Virus record (IMG/VR): IMGVR_UViG_2778261167_000011
Coordinates: 1-25,534 of that record
Length of the DNA: 25,534 bases
Source of the DNA: a virus
Lineage: Duplodnaviria; Heunggongvirae; Uroviricota; Caudoviricetes
Strand: one strand, 5' to 3'
Part shown: in pieces, positions 7,997-22,148 of the stretch
Position numbering within the stretch: position 1 is the first letter of the stretch
How the letters are laid out: each line of letters begins with the position of its first letter
Notes under the pieces: generated by a model
The model's input: only the letters and a program-made list of their open reading frames with translations
The model's database searches: none
What the model was told of the DNA's origin: nothing
Position numbers and translations under genes: made by a program

Positions 7997-8647
7997 TCAG
8001 CGGCTGTCATTGCGCAGTCTGCGCTCCAGCTGCTGTTTGTCTTTTTTCACGCCACAGCGGGGATCGAGCTGTAACGCATGGTTGAGATGATTAAGGGCGG
8101 AAGCCGGATTGCTTTCACTCAGGACAGCGCCAATCGCTTTATGCAGACGCGCCCGTGACTGGTCCGGCATATCCAGACCGTCTGTCAGCTCCAGCGTCTG
8201 CAGCAACAGATCGGCATCAAAGCCGGTAGCGGCAAGCATTGCGCTCTGCGCTGCATCTGCCATTTCCTCTGCCAGCACGGTCTGCACGTTGCGGTTACCC
8301 AGAGGCATCACCCAGCCATGACGCAGGGCATGACGCCCGATCTCCAGCGCCCCGGCATAATCTCCGGCATCAATGCGCCACAGCATCACGTACATCAGCA
8401 CGTCATCCTGTTGAGCGCCTCCGGCAGCCAGGACGCCCTCCGCCCAGGCGGCATATTTCGGCAGCAGCTCCACCTTTATTTCCGCTTTTTTCACCGTGGA
8501 CTGAACGCCCTTGAGACGGCGGCGGTCTTCCGCCAGCTGCAGCAGCATCAGGTCATAGCCCGACGCGTGGCGAACACTGCCGCCCTCACGGGCGGCCTGT
8601 TCAGCCTGAACGCGCAGGCGATGCTGCCGTGCGGGACTCAGGCTCAT
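7997..8647 (-). CDS. M: Terminase small (endonuclease) subunit (P2 gpM-like)
   Basis: 216-aa ORF between capsid N and L; synteny with P2 M. Confidence 0.85.
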   Translation of the reverse strand: MSLSPARQHRLRVQAEQAAREGGSVRHASGYDLMLLQLAEDRRRLKGVQSTVKKAEIKVELLPKYAAWAEGVLAAGGAQQDDVLMYVMLWRIDAGDYAGALEIGRHALRHGWVMPLGNRNVQTVLAEEMADAAQSAMLAATGFDADLLLQTLELTDGLDMPDQSRARLHKAIGAVLSESNPASALNHLNHALQLDPRCGVKKDKQQLERRLRNDSR

Positions 8648-10701: not shown

Positions 10702-12468
10702 ATGAACACCACACTGACACCCGCAGATCTCGATCCCCGTCGGCAGGCCATGCTGCTGTACTTTCAGGGATACCGCGTAGCCCGCATTGCTGAAATGCTG
10801 GGCGAGAAAGTTGCAACCGTTCACAGCTGGAAAAAACGCGACAAGTGGGGTGACTATGGGCCGCTGGATCAGATGCAGCTCACCACCGCCGCACGCTACT
10901 GCCAGCTCATTATGAAGGAGCACAAAGAAGGGAAAGATTTCAAAGAGATTGACCTGCTGGCGCGCCAGTCGGAGCGCCATGCGCGGATCGGCAAGTTTAA
11001 CAATGGCGGCAACGAAGCCGACTTAAACCCTAACGTCGCCAACCGCAACAAAGGCCCGCGCCGTCAGCCGGAAAAGAACGTTTTCACCGATGAACAGATT
11101 GAGAAGCTGGAAGAAATCTTCCATTCCTCCATGTTCAACTACCAGCGCCACTGGTGGGAAGCCGGAAAAACCAACCGCATCCGCAACCTGCTGAAGTCAC
11201 GCCAGATCGGCGCGACCTTCTATTTTGCCCGTGAAGCCCTGATTGACGCCCTGCTGACCGGGCGTAACCAGATTTTCCTTTCCGCCAGCAAGGCACAGGC
11301 CCACGTCTTTAAGCAGTACATCATCGACTTCGCCAAAGAAGTGGAGGTGGAGCTGAAAGGCGATCCGATGGTGCTTCCTAACGGGGCCACGCTGTACTTC
11401 CTCGGCACCAATGCCCGCACGGCCCAGAGTTACCACGGCAACCTGTATCTGGATGAATATTTCTGGATACCGAAATTCCAGGAGCTGCGCAAAGTGGCTT
11501 CCGGTATGGCTATTCACAAGAAATGGCGACAGACCTATTTTTCCACGCCATCCAGTCTGACACACAGTGCTTATCCGTTCTGGTCCGGTGCGCTGTTCAA
11601 CCGTGGGCGCAACAGAGCCGATAAGGTGGACATCGACCTGTCCCACAGCAATCTGGCCCCCGGCCTGCTGTGCGCAGACGGGCAATACCGCCAGATAGTC
11701 ACCGTGGAAGATGCGGTGCGAGGCGGCTGTAACCTGTTCGACCTTGACCAGTTGCGCATGGAGTACAGCCCTGACGAATACCAGAACTTGCTGATGTGCG
11801 AGTTCGTGGACGATCTCGCGTCCGTGTTCCCGCTCAGCGAATTGCAGGCGTGCATGGTGGACAGCTGGGAAGTCTGGACCGACTTTCATGCACTGGCCCT
11901 GCGCCCGTTTGGCTGGCGCGAAGTGTGGATCGGTTATGACCCGGCAAAAGGTACGCAGAACGGCGACAGCGCCGGATGCGTGGTGGTGGCACCGCCAGCC
12001 GTGCCAGGCGGTAAGTTCCGCATTCTTGAGCGTCACCAGTGGCGCGGAATGGACTTTCGCGCCCAGGCTGACGCCATCAAAAAACTGACCGAACAGTACA
12101 ACGTGACCTATATCGGCATCGACTCAACCGGCGTTGGTCACGGGGTTTACGAGAACGTGAAAGCGTTTTTTCCTGCCGTCCGGGAGTTTGTCTACAACCC
12201 CAACGTTAAAAACGCCCTGGTACTCAAGGCCTACGACATTATCAGCCACCGCCGTCTTGAGTTTGACGCCGGGCACACCGACATTGCGCAGTCATTCATG
12301 GCAATCCGTCGCGCCACCACCGCCAGCGGCAACCGCCCGACCTATGAAGCCAGCCGCAGCGAAGAAGCCAGCCATGCCGATCTGGCCTGGGCAACAATGC
12401 ACGCACTGTTTAACGAACCACTGCAGGGCGAGTCCGCCAATACCAGCAATATTGTGGAGATTTTTTGA
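10702..12468 (+). CDS. P: Terminase large (ATPase) subunit (P2 gpP-like)
   Basis: 588-aa ORF divergent from O and followed by the portal gene with overlapping stop/start (TGATG). Confidence 0.93.
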   Translation: MNTTLTPADLDPRRQAMLLYFQGYRVARIAEMLGEKVATVHSWKKRDKWGDYGPLDQMQLTTAARYCQLIMKEHKEGKDFKEIDLLARQSERHARIGKFNNGGNEADLNPNVANRNKGPRRQPEKNVFTDEQIEKLEEIFHSSMFNYQRHWWEAGKTNRIRNLLKSRQIGATFYFAREALIDALLTGRNQIFLSASKAQAHVFKQYIIDFAKEVEVELKGDPMVLPNGATLYFLGTNARTAQSYHGNLYLDEYFWIPKFQELRKVASGMAIHKKWRQTYFSTPSSLTHSAYPFWSGALFNRGRNRADKVDIDLSHSNLAPGLLCADGQYRQIVTVEDAVRGGCNLFDLDQLRMEYSPDEYQNLLMCEFVDDLASVFPLSELQACMVDSWEVWTDFHALALRPFGWREVWIGYDPAKGTQNGDSAGCVVVAPPAVPGGKFRILERHQWRGMDFRAQADAIKKLTEQYNVTYIGIDSTGVGHGVYENVKAFFPAVREFVYNPNVKNALVLKAYDIISHRRLEFDAGHTDIAQSFMAIRRATTASGNRPTYEASRSEEASHADLAWATMHALFNEPLQGESANTSNIVEIF

Positions 12469-13493
12469 TGGGAAAGAGTAAGAAGAACCGCGCTGCGGCG
12501 ACGAAACAGATCCAGCATAAAAACCAGACTTCAGCCGAAGCATTCAGCTTCGGTGATCCCGTTCCTGTTCTGGACCGCCGCGAACTGCTGGACTATGTGG
12601 AATGCGTACAGATGGACCGTTGGTATGAGCCACCAGTGAGTTTCGACGGCCTGGCGCGAACCTTCCGCGCCGCCGTACACCACAGCTCACCGATTGCAGT
12701 AAAGTGCAACATTCTGACCAGCACCTATATCCCTCACCCGTTGCTCAGCCAGCAGGCTTTTTCACGTTTTGTGCAGGACTATCTGGTATTTGGTAATGCC
12801 TACCTGGAGAAACGCACGAACCGCTTCGGTGAAGTTATCGCCCTTGAACCTGCCCTGGCAAAATACACTCGACGCGGATTAGACCTGGATACCTACTGGT
12901 TTGTGCAATACGGTATGGCAACCCAGCCGTATCAGTTCACGAAAGGCAGCATCTTTCATCTGATGGAACCGGATATTAATCAGGAGATCTACGGCCTGCC
13001 TGGCTATCTTTCTGCTATTCCATCCGCTCTGCTCAACGAGTCCGCCACGCTGTTCCGCCGGAAGTATTACATTAACGGCAGTCATGCAGGCTTCATCATG
13101 TACATGACCGATGCCGCGCAAAACCAGGAGGATGTGAACAACCTCCGCAACGCAATGAAAAGCGCCAAAGGACCGGGTAACTTCCGCAACCTGTTTATGT
13201 ACTCGCCTAACGGCAAAAAGGATGGGCTTCAGATCATTCCTCTGTCAGAAGTCGCGGCGAAGGATGAGTTTCTGAATATCAAGAACGTGAGCCGGGACGA
13301 CATGATGGCGGCGCACCGCGTACCGCCGCAAATGATGGGGATTATGCCTAGCAATGTCGGGGGGTTTGGGGATGTAGAGAAAGCTAGTAAGGTATTTGTG
13401 CGGAATGAGCTTTTACCTTTGCAAAAATTGATGCAAGCGCTTAATTGTTGGCTGGATGAAAATATAATTACATTTAATAAATATATTTTGTAG
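12468..13493 (+). CDS. Q: Portal protein (P2 gpQ-like)
   Basis: Start placed at ATG 12468 overlapping the P stop (track ORF starts at a TTG at 12465); size and position match P2 Q. Confidence 0.93.
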   Translation: MGKSKKNRAAATKQIQHKNQTSAEAFSFGDPVPVLDRRELLDYVECVQMDRWYEPPVSFDGLARTFRAAVHHSSPIAVKCNILTSTYIPHPLLSQQAFSRFVQDYLVFGNAYLEKRTNRFGEVIALEPALAKYTRRGLDLDTYWFVQYGMATQPYQFTKGSIFHLMEPDINQEIYGLPGYLSAIPSALLNESATLFRRKYYINGSHAGFIMYMTDAAQNQEDVNNLRNAMKSAKGPGNFRNLFMYSPNGKKDGLQIIPLSEVAAKDEFLNIKNVSRDDMMAAHRVPPQMMGIMPSNVGGFGDVEKASKVFVRNELLPLQKLMQALNCWLDENIITFNKYIL

Positions 13494-13508
13494 TTCCTGT
13501 TTATAATT

Positions 13509-13530
13509 AACGCCTGCCTGAGCAGGCGTT
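13509..13530. terminator. Bidirectional intrinsic terminator between convergent Q and the DUF262 gene
   Basis: Perfect hairpin AACGCCTGC-ctga-GCAGGCGTT with A/T-rich flanks on both sides. Confidence 0.6.
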
Positions 13531-13533
13531 CTT

Positions 13534-15315
13534 TCATTTAAAACGTGTTGCAATATCTGCTGCTTCGATAACTGTTGCTTTTACGGTATTATCGCCAGCA
13601 CGATAATAAATATCCCCATCATAACTAGAATAAGATGCTAGAAGTGGAATTGTAATAACTATAACTCCATAACCATAAAAGTCATTATAGTCAATCAAAC
13701 TCACCACTTGTGATTTAAGAGGCTCACTCAAAGCAGATTTTTTCAACTCATCGCAAAAACGTCTATAATATTCTTCCATTGATATGCCGAGTTTAATAGC
13801 TTCTCTTTTAACACCAACAACACTTCTCTCACCAACTACATGTGCATCTATATCATCAAGCTCTTTTACTCTACTTGTATCACTTGGTTTATCTGTTACA
13901 CCAAGCAATAACTTACCAACTACACCGTTCTTGTTACCTTTACCGATGTTAGCAATAGCACAAATTGTGGAGAATATTTTCTCATGAATGCCATCATCAA
14001 TAGTTCGCTCTCCGCCTAACATCAACAAACCCTGTTTCAGTTCATAATTTGCAAGCTCTATTTCAGATCTTCGTAAAATATCCTCAATATCCACCGTATT
14101 GTGAGAATTATAGATATGACTGCTATCGGCGCTATCAATAAAGTTATCTTTAATCAAGCCTATGATAGAATTAATATTCTTTCTTCTCTCTTCCCCACCA
14201 GTAGCAGATCTTTTAGTATCTAGTCGAGTGACTATATTATTAAGATTGTCTTTTACACCTTTATAATTATTAATCTTCTTATTTTCTTTAATGAGTAATT
14301 CATGAAAAGCAATAAATAACACAGCAAATATGGCTGGGAAAGCATTTGTAGTACGTTTAGTAAAGATTAAATCCCTGAGTTTAATTTCACCGTCACTATT
14401 ACATACTTTTGTTATTTCCTGGATGCAGAATTTAAACTCTTCTGCAAATTTTCCTTCACCATAAACATTAATAGCAGAGCTAATACGACTATACTCTTCA
14501 TCTTCATTATTATAAATCTGATCAAGCGCATCTTTGGAACGATCTATTAACTTACCTCCAACAATACAAGCTGCTATATCTGCAATGCATTGCTCATCCA
14601 TACTGTCACGAAGGTCTGTTGAACGTAAGATCCCATGTTTTACCCAAAATACTTCTTCCGACTGAATTTGGTAACCATGTTTAGTTAGTGGCAAATCAAT
14701 GCTAATAGACGGCATTTGCTCTAAAAGCAATATGTCGTCAGATACATCCCCCCTGATAGAACAGGCAATATCCCTAACCATATTTGAAAATTTATTTTGT
14801 ATACCAGCCTGGCGCCTTTCTTGATCACTAAGTCTATGCCCGTATGTATTAATTCTATCAAAAACATCATTTATTTCGTTCTCAGTCGCATTACGCATAA
14901 TGGACATTGCAAGAGAATAATCCAATAACTGAGTAACCTCACGCTGACTTAAAAGATTATCAGCTTTCACTGCAACAAACTTACCTTCATCCGCTCGATT
15001 TTTCGCTGTGGGAAAAGCGTCCAGATTAAAACGTTTTCCATCAAGTGATTCATATCCTGTTTCGATGAAAGACATTATTGCATGTAATCTTTGTAGGCCA
15101 TCAATTATTTCATATGTGCCAGGATCATTTTCCCTTTCCGCGAGAAGAACTGCAGGAATTGGATATTTTTTTTGAATGGATTCAATTAATTTTTGTTTCT
15201 CTATTGCAGTCCAAACTAATTTTCGTTGATAACGTCTATTAACAAATATCTTACCTTCAGTAAACCATGAATAAATAGTTTGTATAGAAGTTGTTTGCGG
15301 TAATAGTTCAGCCAT
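13534..15315 (-). CDS. DUF262 / ParB-like nuclease-domain protein, 593 aa, AT-rich cargo gene
   Basis: ATG at 15315 with AAGGA RBS; N-terminal YEIIDGLQRL (DGQxR-type) motif characteristic of DUF262 as in GmrSD/BrxU/SspE/DndB N-domains; C-terminal ~350 aa unassigned. Composition is much more AT-rich than the flanking phage genes. Confidence 0.8.
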   Translation of the reverse strand: MAELLPQTTSIQTIYSWFTEGKIFVNRRYQRKLVWTAIEKQKLIESIQKKYPIPAVLLAERENDPGTYEIIDGLQRLHAIMSFIETGYESLDGKRFNLDAFPTAKNRADEGKFVAVKADNLLSQREVTQLLDYSLAMSIMRNATENEINDVFDRINTYGHRLSDQERRQAGIQNKFSNMVRDIACSIRGDVSDDILLLEQMPSISIDLPLTKHGYQIQSEEVFWVKHGILRSTDLRDSMDEQCIADIAACIVGGKLIDRSKDALDQIYNNEDEEYSRISSAINVYGEGKFAEEFKFCIQEITKVCNSDGEIKLRDLIFTKRTTNAFPAIFAVLFIAFHELLIKENKKINNYKGVKDNLNNIVTRLDTKRSATGGEERRKNINSIIGLIKDNFIDSADSSHIYNSHNTVDIEDILRRSEIELANYELKQGLLMLGGERTIDDGIHEKIFSTICAIANIGKGNKNGVVGKLLLGVTDKPSDTSRVKELDDIDAHVVGERSVVGVKREAIKLGISMEEYYRRFCDELKKSALSEPLKSQVVSLIDYNDFYGYGVIVITIPLLASYSSYDGDIYYRAGDNTVKATVIEAADIATRFK

Positions 15316-15449
15316 GAAACAAATTCCTTCTTCTGGATAGAATTTTATAATATAGAAACTGAAAAGGTTAAGTTACCATCAAAAATGATGATAGCAACAA
15401 AAAGATACCATTTTGTAATTTTTTGTTCAGATTTTCATATCAGAGCGCG

Positions 15450-15468
15450 CTCGTATCCCCGCCACGCC
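15450..15468 (-). other. Putative cos (cohesive end) core
   Basis: Minus strand reads GGCGTGGCGGGGATACGAG followed by GCGCGCTCTGA. From memory, this resembles the 19-nt P2/186 cohesive ends (GGCG(A/T)GGCGGGGAAAGCA...) and the following GCGCGCTGA. Orientation relative to Q is as in P2. Confidence 0.45.
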
Positions 15469-15999
15469 TGCCCGCTTTATGTAGTAGTTTTCATGCACCT
15501 GCATGACATGAGCAAAAGCCCGCCAGTTCTGGCATGTCTTAGCCAAACCGATCCTCAAACGATCATGCGAACTCATGCAGCATAGACATGCATGACATGA
15601 AAATCGGTCAAACCTTGAAACCAGTCATAAATATGAGCCAGCTTAATACACACTAAATAGCTGCGTCTAATACTGCTACACCTGCCGTTTACTGACATGT
15701 GGCATGTCGCGTAAGGACAACATACTGTAGGCCAGATACAGCAGGATCAGGCGAAGAAAACGGCCCCACGCCTTACCCAGCAAGAGCCAAGGGCCAAGGG
15801 CTAACCGAAAGTGGAACACTATTCCGCGCAGTTATTTAGTGTCAGCTCTTTTGAGCTAAAATCAAGTTTCAACATGAGGGTCTGTGCAGGCTTTCTCATC
15901 CCGCTAATTTATACAGCACACCTATATATGGCTATGAGTTTGTCATGCCCGCTAATCCTGTTAGGATTAGCCTTGTTTTTTTACGATTGGGATAGGGAT

Positions 16000-16806
16000 A
16001 TGAAGAAATTAACTGGCGTAATTGCTTTTGCTCTGCTGCTTACTGCTTGTGACAAACCGAAGATCGATGCATCAAGCGATCAGTCGATGAAAGAGTCCAT
16101 TCAAAAAGTAAGAGAGTCCTTACCTGCAGATAAAAAAGCTCAGTTCGATGATGCAGTTAAAGTCGTTGCCTTTAGCCAAATCAACATGAGAGAGCTAATG
16201 CAGGCTGGAACGTCTTCTGGGGACGTCTACGAAACAAAAATTAAGTCAGCGTTGGAAGGTAAAACTGGTGATGAGGTTATAAATTACGCACAAACTATTC
16301 GCCTTGAGCGTGAGAAGAGAGAGAAAGAACAGGCTCTGCAAGAAATAAAAGAACTGGAAGCCAAACAAACCTCTGCAACACAGGCTGCGGAAAAAATGAA
16401 AGCCTTCAAGGTCGAACGTTCCCGTTTTTATTTCCAGAAAGAGGATTACGGCAATGATCAGCCAATTCTGGATATTAGCGTTGAAAACGGAACAGACAAA
16501 GCGGTTGCCAGAGTATTCTTCAAAGGAGTTATTGCCAGCCCAGGAAGAAGCGTCCCTTGGTTCTCTGACGTCTTCAACTATAAAATTTCTGGAGGTCTGG
16601 AACCAGGTGAGAAAGCCAACTGGAAATTAGCCCCTAATAGATACTCTGATTGGGGAAAACTTAAAGTTCCGGCTGATGCTATATTTACCGTCACAGTCAT
16701 TGGCCTTGAAGACGCAGATGGGAAATCGATCTATGGTGACGCCGAGTTTTCAGAACGCGATGCTGACAGACTGAATCAACTTAGAGATAAGTACCTTTCT
16801 AAATAA
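16000..16806 (+). CDS. Lipoprotein of unknown function (cargo gene)
   Basis: Start placed at ATG 16000 (MKKLTGVIAFALLLTACDK: signal peptide plus lipobox LLTAC). The track ORF extends upstream to a GTG at 15811. Charged coiled-coil-like middle region (EREKREKEQALQEIKELEAKQ). Confidence 0.75.
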   Translation: MKKLTGVIAFALLLTACDKPKIDASSDQSMKESIQKVRESLPADKKAQFDDAVKVVAFSQINMRELMQAGTSSGDVYETKIKSALEGKTGDEVINYAQTIRLEREKREKEQALQEIKELEAKQTSATQAAEKMKAFKVERSRFYFQKEDYGNDQPILDISVENGTDKAVARVFFKGVIASPGRSVPWFSDVFNYKISGGLEPGEKANWKLAPNRYSDWGKLKVPADAIFTVTVIGLEDADGKSIYGDAEFSERDADRLNQLRDKYLSK

Positions 16807-16914
16807 TCAAAATTAAAGCTACTTCAGCATAGTCCCTGAGAATATATATCAGGGACTACCAAATCACGGCAGATACCCCTTAGTTAAATAATGCTAAACG
16901 CTTAGAAAGAGACC

Positions 16915-17214
16915 ATGAAACGTATAACTTTCTCCTTTACGTTAGTAGCAATCATCATAGCCTTAGCTGGATGTGCTTTGCCAGATAAAGACGGCGACTT
17001 CGGAGCTTATGTTCATGCCTGTCAGCAATATGCATACGGAAAATCCTATGCCTTTGAGAATAGAGACTTCGCGTATAAGGTCTGTAAGGACGCGGCGAAA
17101 CTGTGGAGTGACGAAGTTCCTGGCTATATCATCAGGCAAATTCAACTACATCCTGAAATACCCAGCGAAGAAATTAAATATGCAGCCATGGCCGGCTCTT
17201 TGGGGAACAACTAA
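16915..17214 (+). CDS. Small lipoprotein of unknown function (cargo gene)
   Basis: 99 aa; MKRITFSFTLVAIIIALAGCALPDKDG (signal peptide plus lipobox LAGC); followed by an intrinsic terminator. Confidence 0.7.
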   Translation: MKRITFSFTLVAIIIALAGCALPDKDGDFGAYVHACQQYAYGKSYAFENRDFAYKVCKDAAKLWSDEVPGYIIRQIQLHPEIPSEEIKYAAMAGSLGNN

Positions 17215-17227
17215 ATCAACTTATGAG

Positions 17228-17249
17228 AAAGGGGCTTAATGCCCCTTTT
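17228..17249. terminator. Bidirectional intrinsic terminator
   Basis: AAAGGGGC-ttaat-GCCCCTTTT hairpin with A- and T-runs on either side, between the convergent lipoprotein genes and the small minus-strand ORF. Confidence 0.65.
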
Positions 17250-17281
17250 CGGTTCCCTTATCAAGTCCTAACGAAACAAGC

Positions 17282-17470
17282 TCAACTGATTACATCCATC
17301 GACCTACTGTATTCATGGCTTCGAATTTTCGCCATCAACTCATCAGTCAATTCAGAAACCCACTGCAGAGCTAGCCCCTTCTCTTCATCACTACACTCAC
17401 TAGCCGCTACAAGCTTAAGAAAAAAATCAATGCGCTGGAGCTTCAAAGACTCCAAAAAATAGTCCTGCAT
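17282..17470 (-). CDS. Small hypothetical protein (62 aa) downstream of A
   Basis: ATG at 17470 with strong RBS (AGGAGGAAAG) and an AT-rich promoter-like region upstream (17480-17600). The track ORF is longer (to 17572) but its 5' part looks non-coding. Confidence 0.45.
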   Translation of the reverse strand: MQDYFLESLKLQRIDFFLKLVAASECSDEEKGLALQWVSELTDELMAKIRSHEYSRSMDVIS

Positions 17471-17623
17471 CTTTCCTCCTATAACACCATACGCAATACT
17501 GTACATATAACCACTGTTTATATTTACAGTATATAATAATCTTACTGATGTAAAACGTTTTTTTACGTTCATCAGCCTGATATGCCTGGTATTATTAAGA
17601 GCACGAATTGTTAACCCGCGTGA

Positions 17624-20035
17624 TTAATACATGTTCCGCCACTTATCATCTTCCTGCAAACGCTGGTTCCGATAGAAGATACGCAGGCCTGCTCCTGACG
17701 GAATACTGCCACCGCAAAGGAGCAAATCGACCTCTTTCTCGCTGCCATCAAATCCTCTGGACTTCAGTTCATAGACGAGCTGCTGACGCTGATACTCTGT
17801 AATTCGCTGTTTGTAGTCTTTACGCCGTTTCGGTTTAACCAGGCGCAATCTTGCTGCCAGTTCCCGGCGCTCTTTTTTGCTCATACTGTGCAGGTAATCG
17901 TGCAATTCCTTGTCATCCATGCAGGTAATGTCCGTTCTGGTATCCCCATCTGCTGATTCATCTTTCTCATGTTGGTTCAAATTTTCAGCAAGGGGACAGT
18001 TATTGCCACGAGTCCAAGGGGCGCAAGCGCCCTGGTCGGCTGCCGCCTCCTGAACGTCAACGGCCTTACGGGCCTTTTTCCACTTCATCGCGTGCGTGCA
18101 AATCTTGCCCTCTATAATCGGGGACCAGATGCCATAGATACGGATACCGTGATCGCCGTAAGCGCTCGGTTCGTCGTTAAGCTCATAAGCCGTGCGGACA
18201 AGGTGATGTTTGCGGGGAACCAGTACACCGCCCTGCTTCATGATGTAAGTGGCAAAGCAACCCGCATCTGCAGCTGCCAGTACCGCATCCAGACGCGGAT
18301 TATCCAGTACCGGTGCACCCGCTTTGCGTTCGCCCTGCACTCTCGCCGCCTGACCAGCCAGCAAGCGCAGCTCACGGTATGCCTGACGCCCCGGGATACC
18401 AAAGAAACGGAATTGCTGGACACGGTGCAGTGACGCCCAGGCACAGACATGCTCGGCGCTGTCACGCAATGATCTGCCGGTTTCTTTGCTGATTTCTTTA
18501 GCCAGCCCGCGCCCGTCGATGTTCTTACTGATGTATTTGGCGATGTAGCTGGTCGGTGTACCCTTGCGCGGGTTGATTAGCTCGGACTTGAAGCGCGGGC
18601 CGGTATTGGTGCCCAGTTCCTCGCGGTCTTCACGGATGGCGAACTTACGCAGCAGCGCGGTGATGGAACGACGGTCTTTTTTGCGCATAAAGCACAGAAG
18701 ATGCCAGTGCACGGTGCCGTCATGGTGCGGCTCTGCAACGCGGACGCCGTACCAGCGCAATCCGGCCTTGTGCATGGCCTTGCGGAAAGCGGCGAACGTA
18801 TCAACCAGATAATCACTGCTCTGCCGGACAGTGGCACTGATCCACTTCGGATTAGGTCTGCCGTTGTTGAGGGTTGCGTGGAAGCGTGACGGGCAGGTGA
18901 TGGTATAGAACACCGCGCAGTCTCCGCGCATTTCCGCTATCAGTTCCAGCCCCTTAACACAGGTCATCATTTCATTACGGCGGTGTGCCGGGTTACTGTT
19001 GCTGGCGTTCACTACATCTTCCATGTCCAGCGTGTCGCCGTCTTCATTGACCAGCTCATGCGAGCGGAAGAACTCCAACGATTTGCGACGCTGCTCGCGT
19101 TTGTGTATCACGGCTTCATAACTGACATACGGGGACGCTTTCTTGTTGACCAGACAGACGGCGCGCATCTGCTCCTCCCGCCACTCGCAGCGCATCTGCC
19201 ACAATTTGCGATACCACCAGTCCGCGCACAGCATGCGCGCCAGCGACGGTGGGATCAGTTCATAAGGCACTGGCTTGCGACGGCGCTTTTTGCGGCGCAA
19301 CTTCTCAAAGGCAGGCGGAATGACCTCAAGGCGCATGGCTTCTGCAGCAACCCTTTCCCACGCCTGGCGGATTTCTTCTGGTTTAACATCGTCACTGACA
19401 AACAGATCACCGCAAGCCGCATCAAGACACATGCTCATATGTGCCGCAACCAGCGTGGAAAGGCGCTTGACCTGATCCTGATTCATTTCAGGAAGTACCA
19501 GCAATCCCTCCAGCCCGTCCTGGCTCGCCATGAATCGGAAAGATGCAGACACCTGGCTGTCACGCACTCGCTCCAGCCGCTCAAAACAAGGCCTGATTGT
19601 TTCGCGCAGATAACGGGAATAAGCTTTAGCCCTGCCTAGGCTATTGAAGTATTTAATCCGCTCTAACAGAGGCTTGCTGATATGGGCAGGCATGGCGCTT
19701 ACATCGGCAATAATCACCAAATCGGGATTAACGCGCTGCTGCTCGCGGGCCATTCTGGCATGGCTAATCAGCCGATCCTGCTCTATTTCACGCTGGACAG
19801 GATCGCGGGATTCATTGAAGAAATAACGTTCCCACACCTCATCACTCAGCGCCTCACGGCGCAGATGCTCCTGCTCGTTATCTGCAGCGTACAGAGTGAT
19901 GAGGTTTGAAAGCGCAGACTCAGGCGCAAATTCCGCCGGGTCCAAATACGGGTTAACCGCTTTTTTTGGGGTATTCCATGGAAAGGCCACGGCGGTCACA
20001 ATCGGACCGCCTTTATCTTTTAGTAGCTCAGACAT
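17624..20035 (-). CDS. A: Rolling-circle replication initiator endonuclease (P2 gpA-like)
   Basis: HUH motif (TVHWHLLCF) and active-site tyrosine motif YIAKYISK; ~800 aa. Start placed at ATG 20035 with GGAG RBS; the track ORF begins at a GTG at 20065. Confidence 0.9.
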
Positions 20036-20054
20036 CACTGGAAGACTCCAAAGC

Positions 20055-20282
20055 TCACAAAGCACCTCGGGTGTAGTGCATCCCTTTCAGCTCTGCTATT
20101 TCCTTACAGGTGACGCAGAGATCACAGCCCGGCACTGCAGCACGGCGCTGTTCCGGGATGACGATTCCGCAACACTCACACTCCAGAGAAGAAGCCCCAG
20201 TCTTTCGGCTGCGAGCTGTTTGGATATGGCGCTGACGTTCTTCTTCAACGCGCTGTTGCACGAGGTCCATTGAATCAGCCAT
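20055..20282 (-). CDS. TraR/DksA-family C4 zinc-finger protein
   Basis: 75 aa containing [25 protein letters not shown] (a four-cysteine motif); sits just upstream of A like the DksA-like ORFs of P2-type early operons. Confidence 0.8.
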
Positions 20283-21003: not shown

Positions 21004-21252
21004 ATGTTGAACCTGGTTGAGAAGGAACGGATCGAGCAGCTTGAAAATGAAATTGCGCGACTGCGAGAGGATGTTGAGATGCAACAAATCCTGCTGTCTG
21101 GCTTACTACACAGTGTGCTACGAGGAGAATCATCGAATCAGTCAGCATTTTTAAACATCCTTCGTGAAGAATTAAACAAATTGCCGCCAGGCTCACTCAA
21201 ACGTCAGGAATTCACCTACAAACTTCAGGAGCTAATAGAGCGTTACCGATAA
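21004..21252 (+). CDS. Hypothetical coiled-coil protein (82 aa), antisense to the early operon
   Basis: ATG at 21004 with GAGGG RBS at good spacing; heptad-like sequence ERIEQLENEIARLREDVEMQQ; 3' end overlaps the convergent 74-aa ORF. Confidence 0.45.
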   Translation: MLNLVEKERIEQLENEIARLREDVEMQQILLSGLLHSVLRGESSNQSAFLNILREELNKLPPGSLKRQEFTYKLQELIERYR

Positions 21253-21467
21253 GTTTGTTGGCGATACTGTTCAAGAGGTGATGTGCTTTTCCGCATCACT
21301 TCCTGAACCCGTTCCCCCCGAAAGAATGTCCCATCTCGCAACGTAAAATAGTAACTACCATCACCCGAAAGAGACGGATAACAACTTGCAAACTCGTCCT
21401 CATGAATTGAATACTTTTCGCCCTTATGGAAGAACTGGTAAAACACACCTTCTGTAGCTTGCGCCAT
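21243..21467 (-). CDS. Hypothetical early protein (74 aa; positional analogue of 186 fil/dhr-region genes)
   Basis: ATG at 21467 with AGGGG RBS; protein-like composition, unlike the alternative overlapping frame. Confidence 0.55.
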   Translation of the reverse strand: MAQATEGVFYQFFHKGEKYSIHEDEFASCYPSLSGDGSYYFTLRDGTFFRGERVQEVMRKSTSPLEQYRQQTYR

Positions 21468-21638
21468 GATTTCCCCTTTTTGGTTGTAGACAATTCATCC
21501 AGAAGCGCATTCTGAGTACGGCACAGGTGCCAGCGCTTGCCATCCTTCCCCATAATCCAGCCATGACCGCAGTGCATTGCCGGGCTTTGCCTCACCAATA
21601 GTGATGCAAATGAAGGTTCTTTCGTCAGCATAACCACC

Positions 21639-22148
21639 TCAGATCAGACCGAACGAAGCACCGAGGCCCGTCACGGTATCTACTGCGCTTGCCATCGCTG
21701 GGTTAGCCTGCAAACGCGCCTGTAATGAAACTGCAGTCAGTGCCATCAAACGCGTAACTGAATTAATGCTGCTAATTACATCGCGGCGGCCTGCGGTAGT
21801 TTTCACTTCACCAGAGACGGCACCTGCAGCAACACGACCTATTTCTGCGGTAGCGCTCATGACGTAATGCGGCAATTTCTCTTTTGCAACTTCGTTTACC
21901 GGAACACATGGCAAGCAATGAATTTGCGCCAGAAACCCATCAACTAATGTGGAGTCTTCGGTGAGATCGGTTAGCAGCCATATGTCTGGCGCCGTGAGCT
22001 GGTGCGGTTGCTCCGGGTTGAGCTTATTGCGCAGGGTTTGGACGTTCATGCCTGCAAGTTCTGCCAGCTTCGCCATGTTGTGCCGTAAAGCAAAAGCCCG
22101 ACAGGCATCATGGAAATGCGGATGTTTTGATATGCGATAGTCAAACAT
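21639..22148 (-). CDS. cII: Phage regulatory protein CII (186 CII-like)
   Basis: 169 aa. The N-terminal region (HNMAKLAELAGMNVQTLRNKLNPEQPHQLT) matches my recollection of the 186 CII family HTH region; located right after apl in the lytic operon. Confidence 0.75.
   Translation of the reverse strand: MFDYRISKHPHFHDACRAFALRHNMAKLAELAGMNVQTLRNKLNPEQPHQLTAPDIWLLTDLTEDSTLVDGFLAQIHCLPCVPVNEVAKEKLPHYVMSATAEIGRVAAGAVSGEVKTTAGRRDVISSINSVTRLMALTAVSLQARLQANPAMASAVDTVTGLGASFGLI

Follow-up and report, generated by a model that had tools for sequence, protein, structure and literature searches.

A probable P2-family cos site with conserved YGCAT motifs, set between two exchangeable cargo cassettes in an Escherichia coli prophage

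The 25,534 nt of DNA analysed here in full (the window) contain, at 15443-15592, what is very probably the cos site of a P2-family E. coli prophage of the Fels-2/Elvee type. Within this element, 15450-15468 is, with similar confidence, the sequence that the terminase of this phage lineage would cut, leaving 19-nt 5' ends. Both the element and its two-sided cargo arrangement are already known, the literature describing each of them, and current understanding is unchanged. The element, of about 150 bp, carries no RefSeq annotation in roughly one complete E. coli genome in four (1,248 of 5,426), and although the practical value of marking it is small, doing so would fix the virion map of these prophages, and would split the gpA-gpQ hotspot into two independently exchanged cassettes, one for each end of the packaged DNA. 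Additionally, the exact phasing of YGCAT motifs shared by P2, 186, P4 and the window's lineage represents a testable candidate for a terminase recognition code, which could aid the design of P2/P4-type cosmids for different helpers.

The prophage context of the element is clear. Positions 13000-18000 of the window are 100% identical to part of an E. coli chromosome, in a region that RefSeq annotates as a P2-family prophage, and that annotation gives a gene order on the window's plus strand that corresponds to the P2 order read backwards. Tail, lysis and head genes (minus strand) are succeeded by the small terminase (minus), the large terminase (plus), the portal (plus) and a GmrSD-domain gene (minus), after which comes cos; beyond it lie a DUF6694 lipoprotein gene (plus), a 99-aa open reading frame (ORF) (plus), a 62-aa ORF (minus) and gpA (minus), then CII, CI and the integrase. 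Hence the left end of a P2-type virion map is expected exactly at the cos element, which lies between the portal (Q) and the gene A region of a genome with a gpM/gpP-type terminase (RefSeq, Pfam). The principal genes and one promoter-like site are as follows.

7997-8647, minus strand: small terminase, gpM homologue and predicted recognition subunit (Pfam PF05944, E 2e-40; 49% identical to P2 gpM and to 186 R)
10702-12468, plus strand: large terminase, gpP homologue and predicted cos-cutting enzyme (63% identical to P2 gpP, 64% to the 186 homologue)
12468-13493, plus strand: portal, gpQ homologue, left limit of the variable region (RefSeq, Pfam)
13534-15315, minus strand: left-end cargo, 593-aa GmrSD_N (DUF262) protein (Pfam PF03235, E 1.6e-22; PADLOC NsnA, 8e-31; RefSeq)
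15342-15371: promoter-like site near the GmrSD gene (promoter scan)
16000-16806, plus strand: right-end cargo, DUF6694 lipoprotein (Pfam PF20404, E 3.5e-22)
16915-17214, plus strand: right-end cargo, 99-aa lipobox ORF
17624-20038, minus strand: replication endonuclease, gpA homologue, right limit of the variable region (RefSeq)

An ORF of 66 aa at 15385-15585, spanning cos, was rejected as a gene, as it crosses both the conserved non-coding block and the edge of homology at 15443, and an Rfam scan of 15200-17700 returned no match. On the far side of gpA, a dam methylase gene is missing from the window's prophage in the interval up to a TraR-like ORF (20038-20055), whereas the closely-related GCM74-1-1 prophage has an 858-nt dam gene at this place (21036-21893 of its locus); the left part of the window is also unlike the GCM74-1-1 genome.

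The cos element itself can be divided into the following parts, with signed positions giving distances from the top-strand nick.

15443-15449, minus strand: left flank CGCGCTC (YGCGCGC in the family, P2, 186 and P4); homology to all relatives ends here
15450-15468, minus strand: 19-nt cohesive-end sequence GGCGTGGCGGGGATACGAG, putative cosN equivalent (matches 186 at 15 of 19 positions and P2 at 14 of 19; the same as the SEN8 putative cos)
15469-15490, minus strand: right flank AAAACTACTACATAAAGCGGGCA, directly before the predicted top-strand nick; nearly invariant in 55 family members
15491-15506, minus strand: proximal inverted pair TCATGCA-GG-TGCATGA, with motifs at -36 and -28 (the -28 GCAT is in 55 of 55 members, and in P2, 186 and P4)
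15511-15534 (-62 to -38), minus strand: terminator-like hairpin and T-run, degenerate in the window's lineage (terminator scan)
15550-15553 (-85) and 15561-15564 (-96), no strand assigned: two conserved GATC sites in the spacer, in nearly all family members
15563-15592, minus strand: distal module of three direct YGCAT repeats, with positions kept in P2 (the first at -122), 186, P4 and 48-51 of 55 family members
15593-15708, no strand assigned: outside the conserved cos, comprising the end of the second GCATGACATGA copy, CATGAAAA and a palindrome; part of the right-hand cargo module, with no family conservation

The original prediction, made from the letters of the DNA alone, proposed a P2/186-type cos on the strength of the 19-mer on the minus strand at 15450-15468, and every sequence it quoted is present where it was placed. 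The 19-mer was correctly read as GGCGTGGCGGGGATACGAG, although the sequence following it is CGCGCTCTGA, the quoted 'GCGCGCTCTGA' having re-used the last G of the 19-mer. The comparison with genome termini that it proposed bears out the assignment, as the window aligns with the annotated ends of P2, 186 and P4 without gaps and with the same architecture. The cohesive ends given in GenBank records are GGCGAGGCGGGGAAAGCAC for P2 and GGCGTGGCGGGGAAAGCAT for 186, from which the window differs at five and four of the 19 bases respectively, with the first 13 nt being identical to 186, and the last six reading TACGAG in the window versus AAGCAT or AAGCAC in P2 and 186. The element has the G+C-rich 19-nt end of the form GGCG(A/T)GGCGGGG... 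The pattern GGCGWGGCGGGGA occurs as a single copy in the 25.5 kb window when up to one mismatch is allowed, against an expectation of 0.02. By homology, the nicks would fall between 15469 and 15468 on the top strand, and between 15450 and 15449 on the bottom strand.

The 19-mer is identical to the cos assigned in two named phages, which places it in the Fels-2/Elvee-type variant (...GGGGATACGAG). The record of the Salmonella phage SEN8 (Felsduovirus, NC_047753) begins with the identical 19-mer, labelled 'putative cos site', and the SEN8 genome paper gives the same sequence as cos (PMC5427200). Similarly, the annotation of the Escherichia phage Cartapus (Elveevirus, OV696611) includes the 19-mer in a 'putative cos site, homologous to the cos of P2'. 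Both sites were assigned by annotation or homology, and the literature search yielded no physical mapping of virion ends for any phage of the ...ATACGAG type, including the prophage of the window. The similarity to SEN8 and Cartapus continues through the block of about 150 bp (about 88-92% identity), and both phages also carry inserts between cos and the portal gene: SEN8 has an HNH gene and a gene for a hypothetical protein, Cartapus a DUF4145 gene. However, their cargo is unlike that of the window on both sides, and the window differs in having four extra CATGs, a weaker hairpin and a GCGCTC variant of the left flank.

This block is both widespread and sharply delimited. Against phage records, BLAST aligned only 15432-15592, and the 54 records with a query coverage of 80% or more were 79-92% identical to the block. 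In the search of complete E. coli genomes, 15445-15592 was aligned in 1,248 of 5,426, nearly always without an annotated feature. Among 80 loci from different species, gathered using the portal protein as an anchor, most had a GGCGNGGCGGGG-type site exactly once, downstream of the portal gene, and in 41 of these 80 species-level loci the 19-mer was exactly that of the window. The exact 19-mer was also found in more than 120 IMG/VR contigs, where it was internal, these contigs being prophage-derived. An alignment of a 55-sequence family was near-invariant from 15592 down to 15443, with no conservation outside, such that three independent comparisons agree on sharp edges of homology at 15443/15445 and 15592. 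Among the loci fetched, none was a convincing P4-like satellite with the window's cos variant, with one (L077) alone having a weak psu-like match.

A four-way alignment of the window, P2, 186 and P4, ungapped and anchored on the nick and annotated cohesive ends, resolves the internal structure of the element. Mean pairwise identity is 84% in the overhang, 83% at +19 to +25 (the YGCGCGC flank), 74% at -38 to -1, and 63% in the distal module at -124 to -95, yet 33% in the spacer at -94 to -39, and 26% beyond +26. The window alone compares with the other three at 66-76% over -38 to -1, 74-79% in the overhang, 71-86% at +19 to +25, and about 17-29% beyond +26. The window, P2, P4 and 186 thus share a conserved core, some 55 bp in length, that surrounds the nick sites. 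According to papers that cite Ziermann & Calendar 1990 (PMC5694545, PMC3931495), a 55-bp core is conserved in P2-family phages and needed for packaging; this statement, known through these citing papers, was the only one on P2 cos anatomy that the literature search found, and the published core corresponds to -38 to +25 of the alignment. The cos sites of P2, 186 and P4 also resemble that of the window in location, with the portal gene Q to one side and the accessory region next to A to the other, and in their two flanks, AAAAC..AAGCGGGC(A/G) and YGCGCGC. The right flank of the window aligns to AAAACCGCCCCGTGAAGCGGGCG in P2 and AAAACCGACCCATAAAGTGGGCA in 186, and the terminases of these two phages are of the same family as that of the window (TerS 49% identical, TerL 63-64%).

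The three direct repeats of the distal module, all on the minus strand, are TGCATG at 15587-15592 (-123), TGCATGA at 15573-15579 (-110) and CGCATGA at 15563-15569 (-100), spaced by 13 and 10 nt. Together with the proximal motif, GCAT starts at -123, -110, -100 and -28 in the window, 186 and P4, and at -122, -110, -100 and -28 in P2; within the 55-member family, these four positions are occupied in 49, 51, 48 and 55 sequences, respectively. The inverted ATGCA at -36 is common to the window, 186 and the family. As P4 has only cos in common with P2 (PMC9122126), and the spacer is unconserved, yet the distances to the nick are fixed, the YGCAT motifs are best regarded as part of the packaging signal. 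That they specifically act as terminase recognition elements, in a cosB-like role, is the favoured reading of their function, albeit one held with appreciably less confidence than the identity of the site; we infer that such recognition would occur through gpM, a helix-turn-helix noted in the annotation of the 186 large subunit, or both.

The motif that first drew attention to this region was CATG, which the original prediction found in a dense cluster of repeats downstream of the 19-mer, and suggested as terminase recognition elements. The cluster itself is conspicuous. The window contains 116 CATGs (4.5 per kb), of which nine are in the 140 nt from 15488 (15488-15627), relative to 0.64 expected (Poisson P about 3e-8), and no other 140-nt stretch of the window has a higher count. 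Similarly, YGCATGA occurs 13 times in the window, five of them within 15491-15595. It is therefore highly implausible that the cluster arose by chance or from base composition next to a genuine cos, and a chance origin is already refuted for the five CATGs (15492, 15502, 15564, 15574 and 15587) whose positions are kept across genera, as well as in P2, 186 and P4. Yet the remaining four (15507, 15533, 15591 and 15596) are specific to the lineage, such that the window has nine CATGs in -150 to -1 compared with a family mode of five, and the conserved unit is YGCAT(G/T) rather than CATG, the window's TGCATG being mostly TGCATT in P2. The suggested recognition role is probable for the five CATGs linked to YGCAT, while the four unconserved ones could have arisen by chance.

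Other repeats that had been quoted alongside them are real, but several of them are lineage-specific or cargo DNA. The two copies of GCATGACATGA (15501-15511 and 15590-15600) are contained in a longer direct repeat of 20 nt (15492-15511 and 15581-15600, 85% identical), and the second copy runs past the conserved edge at 15592, which argues against its being a conserved element of cos. TTTTCATG (15488-15495) and CATGAAAA (15596-15603) are inverted relative to each other, as had been described, but are not conserved cos elements. The palindrome GACATG-tgg-CATGTC (GACATGtggCATGTC) at 15694-15708 is likewise as quoted, but lies in cargo DNA, as 100% identity over 15593-15708 is restricted to prophages with the same lipoprotein cassette. 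The lack of conservation of the second GCATGACATGA copy and the palindrome, like that of the four lineage-specific CATGs, is what a chance accumulation would produce, and a 9-nt repeat TGGCATGTC (15530 and 15700) is also within chance expectation, at about 0.5 per 500 nt by our own estimate.

These observations are consistent with a mechanism in which, after excision and replication, a terminase of gpM-like and gpP-like subunits would bind the signal of about 150 bp. It would then make staggered nicks on either side of 15450-15468, generating linear virion DNA with 19-nt 5' overhangs reading GGCGTGGCGGGGATACGAG. P2 terminase acts on circular monomers. The signal would be bipartite, with a core from about -38 to +25 and a distal module. 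The core would consist of the overhang, with YGCGCGC to its left, and AAAAC..AAAGCGGGCA and the inverted TCATGCA/TGCATGA pair to its right; the distal module would present three direct YGCAT repeats at -123, -110 and -100, held at a fixed distance across an unconserved, hairpin-bearing spacer. The cos of lambda (cosN, cosB with its R sites and the integration host factor (IHF) site I1, and cosQ) is a functional analogue, in that it combines a nick site with a one-sided array of short recognition repeats. However, it has no sequence similarity to the window's element, and has a 12-nt rather than a 19-nt overhang; furthermore, no match to the IHF consensus WATCARNNNNTTR at up to one mismatch was found between 15283 and 15998, in contrast to a lambda-type cosB.

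An alternative is that the repeats are transcription signals for the neighbouring cargo, acting as -35 elements or operators reading outward from cos, rather than being involved in packaging. P2 provides the reason to consider this, as its old-tin mRNA starts at -149/-151 and is read away from cos, such that the distal repeats overlap the promoter region there; in our reading of the sequence, this start places a -35-like TTGAAT on the first distal repeat, where the window's family reads TAGACA on the outward strand (15583-15588). Yet P4 has the three repeats at identical positions, despite its neighbouring gene psu being read towards cos, and the repeats keep their distance to the nick rather than to genes, with the cargo differing in every locus. 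No outward-strand promoter reaching 9/12 was found in the window's element. Hence this explanation is improbable, and packaging remains the preferred function of the motifs.

It is similarly unlikely that the element is a cos by descent of which this copy is crippled, as part of a defective prophage. This would be attributable to a G-to-T change and the degenerate hairpin reducing or abolishing cutting. The change is an A at 15444 (T on the minus strand, at +24), 6 nt beyond the overhang, which converts GCGCGC to GCGCTC; it is absent from each of the other 54 members of the family, and the flank reads GCGCGC in P2, 186 and P4 alike. The hairpin has a folding energy of -10.2 kcal/mol, compared with -19.7 kcal/mol in typical relatives, and -17.8 kcal/mol at the same place in P4, being weaker because GGCCCGCCAG has become GACATGCCAG. 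However, the variant is shared with the E. coli W prophage, travelling with the GmrSD cassette, and this form of the left flank is 100% conserved in that prophage lineage and its relatives. Additionally, P2 itself has no obvious hairpin at the corresponding place, and the conserved YGCAT motifs, the 19-mer and the packaging genes of the window are all intact. Therefore a cos that may well be active in this copy is the preferred reading.

Covariation in the stem of the hairpin is weak, with 83% of positions paired, eight doubly changed cells, and 12 of 500 shuffles reaching the observed score; given this, and the absence of an obvious equivalent in P2, it is treated here as an insulating terminator of uncertain importance. 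Some relatives (L009-L014, L126 and similar) have a different structure at -78 to -35, where the cos hairpin is lengthened by an outer stem, ACGGGTCGG...CCGGCCCGT, or makes a 16-bp perfect palindrome instead of the T-run, which suggests that it is not always a simple terminator. The two GATC sites are also a feature of the family's spacer that is absent from P2, 186 and P4. A link between this pair and a phage-encoded dam gene was considered and rejected, as 15 loci without dam keep both sites.

Up to 15481, the window has the same sequence as the E. coli W prophage, which shares its GmrSD gene but has a different right side; from 15445 onward, it is identical to the NMBU-W12E19 prophage, which has the same lipoproteins but a different left side. 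The two cassettes of the window consequently have separate histories, and these limits of identity define an exchange interval of 15445-15481, containing the 19-nt overhang. This junction fits published speculation that the cohesive ends, or the cos block, mediate cassette exchange, and would be compatible with either annealing of ends or ordinary homologous recombination.

It is conceivable, if doubtful, that the signal of the whole P2/186/P4/Fels-2 group is bipartite and phased, that its recognition in the Fels-2/Elvee lineage may be coupled to Dam methylation or replication state, and that the overhang is the crossover point between cassettes. Were this so, a core of about 63 bp would act with a triple-YGCAT module fixed at -124 to -95 across a freely varying spacer; the two near-invariant GATC sites in the Fels-2/Elvee spacer might link cos recognition to Dam, as at the P1 pac site; and left and right cassettes would be reassorted at the cohesive-end sequence between co-resident phages.

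The arrangement of cargo on both sides of cos was itself singled out in the original prediction, which placed a DUF262 gene on the portal side and lipoproteins on the other. The split is as described, with the GmrSD_N/DUF262 gene on the portal side and two lipobox ORFs, correctly given in the plural, on the gpA side. As cos lies between the two variable cassettes, packaging would leave the GmrSD gene at the far left of the virion DNA, with the lipoprotein genes at its far right. However, the split is not exceptional. In a survey of 134 loci with a single family-type cos, the distance from the portal stop codon to cos ranged from 160 to 3531 nt (median 1699), being at least 600 nt in 88 of 105 loci, while the distance from cos to gpA was 482-4378 nt (93 loci); both were at least 600 nt in 50 of 71. 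Hence cargo on both sides is the norm in the window's lineage, and has been described previously (PMC9122126, PMC5694545), with P2 and 186 being the exceptions: their portal-cos gap is about 170-190 bp, whereas that of the window is a cassette of 1.96 kb.

This region corresponds to a recognised hotspot. Related prophages have unrelated gene content between the conserved Q and A, and the variable, often defence-related gpA-gpQ interval next to cos has been described as such (Rousset et al. 2022, PMC9122126); cosL-Q is also a known insertion hotspot, attributed to Dodd & Egan 1996 and Nakayama 1999 by a citing paper (PMC5694545). The interval in the window is of the same kind, bounded by the conserved A and Q with cos inside, and resolves into two independently exchanged cassettes, with their junction in or next to the cohesive-end sequence. 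The GmrSD_N-domain protein, with its NsnA-like PADLOC match, is a candidate for the defence-type cargo typical of the cos-adjacent hotspot of P2-like phages. On the other side, both right-hand ORFs have N-terminal signal peptides and lipoboxes (LLLTAC and IALAGC), and neither lipoprotein matched a defence family.

Several further observations concern this cargo and the DNA adjoining cos. Only the N-terminal GmrSD_N/DUF262 domain of the 593-aa 'GmrSD' protein has a match, the best PADLOC match being NsnA (8e-31), while its C-terminus has a weak match to Schlafen AlbA_2 (E 1.2e-3) rather than the usual DUF1524 nuclease domain. A 13-nt inverted repeat (12 of 13 positions matching), GATTTTCATATCA and TGACATGAAAATC, lies just outside both edges of the cos block, at 15430-15442 and 15593-15605, although this could be chance, with a rough estimate of 0.1-0.3 expected per 500 nt. 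GCCAAGG occurs as two tandem copies at 15786-15799, within the 400 nt of non-coding DNA that separate the cos block from the lipoprotein gene. Finally, some 20 nt before the start codon of the lipoprotein gene (16000), a hairpin with a 9-bp stem is followed by a T-run (15951-15981) and overlapped by a promoter-like site at 15940-15967; the hairpin could be either a terminator or a leader element.
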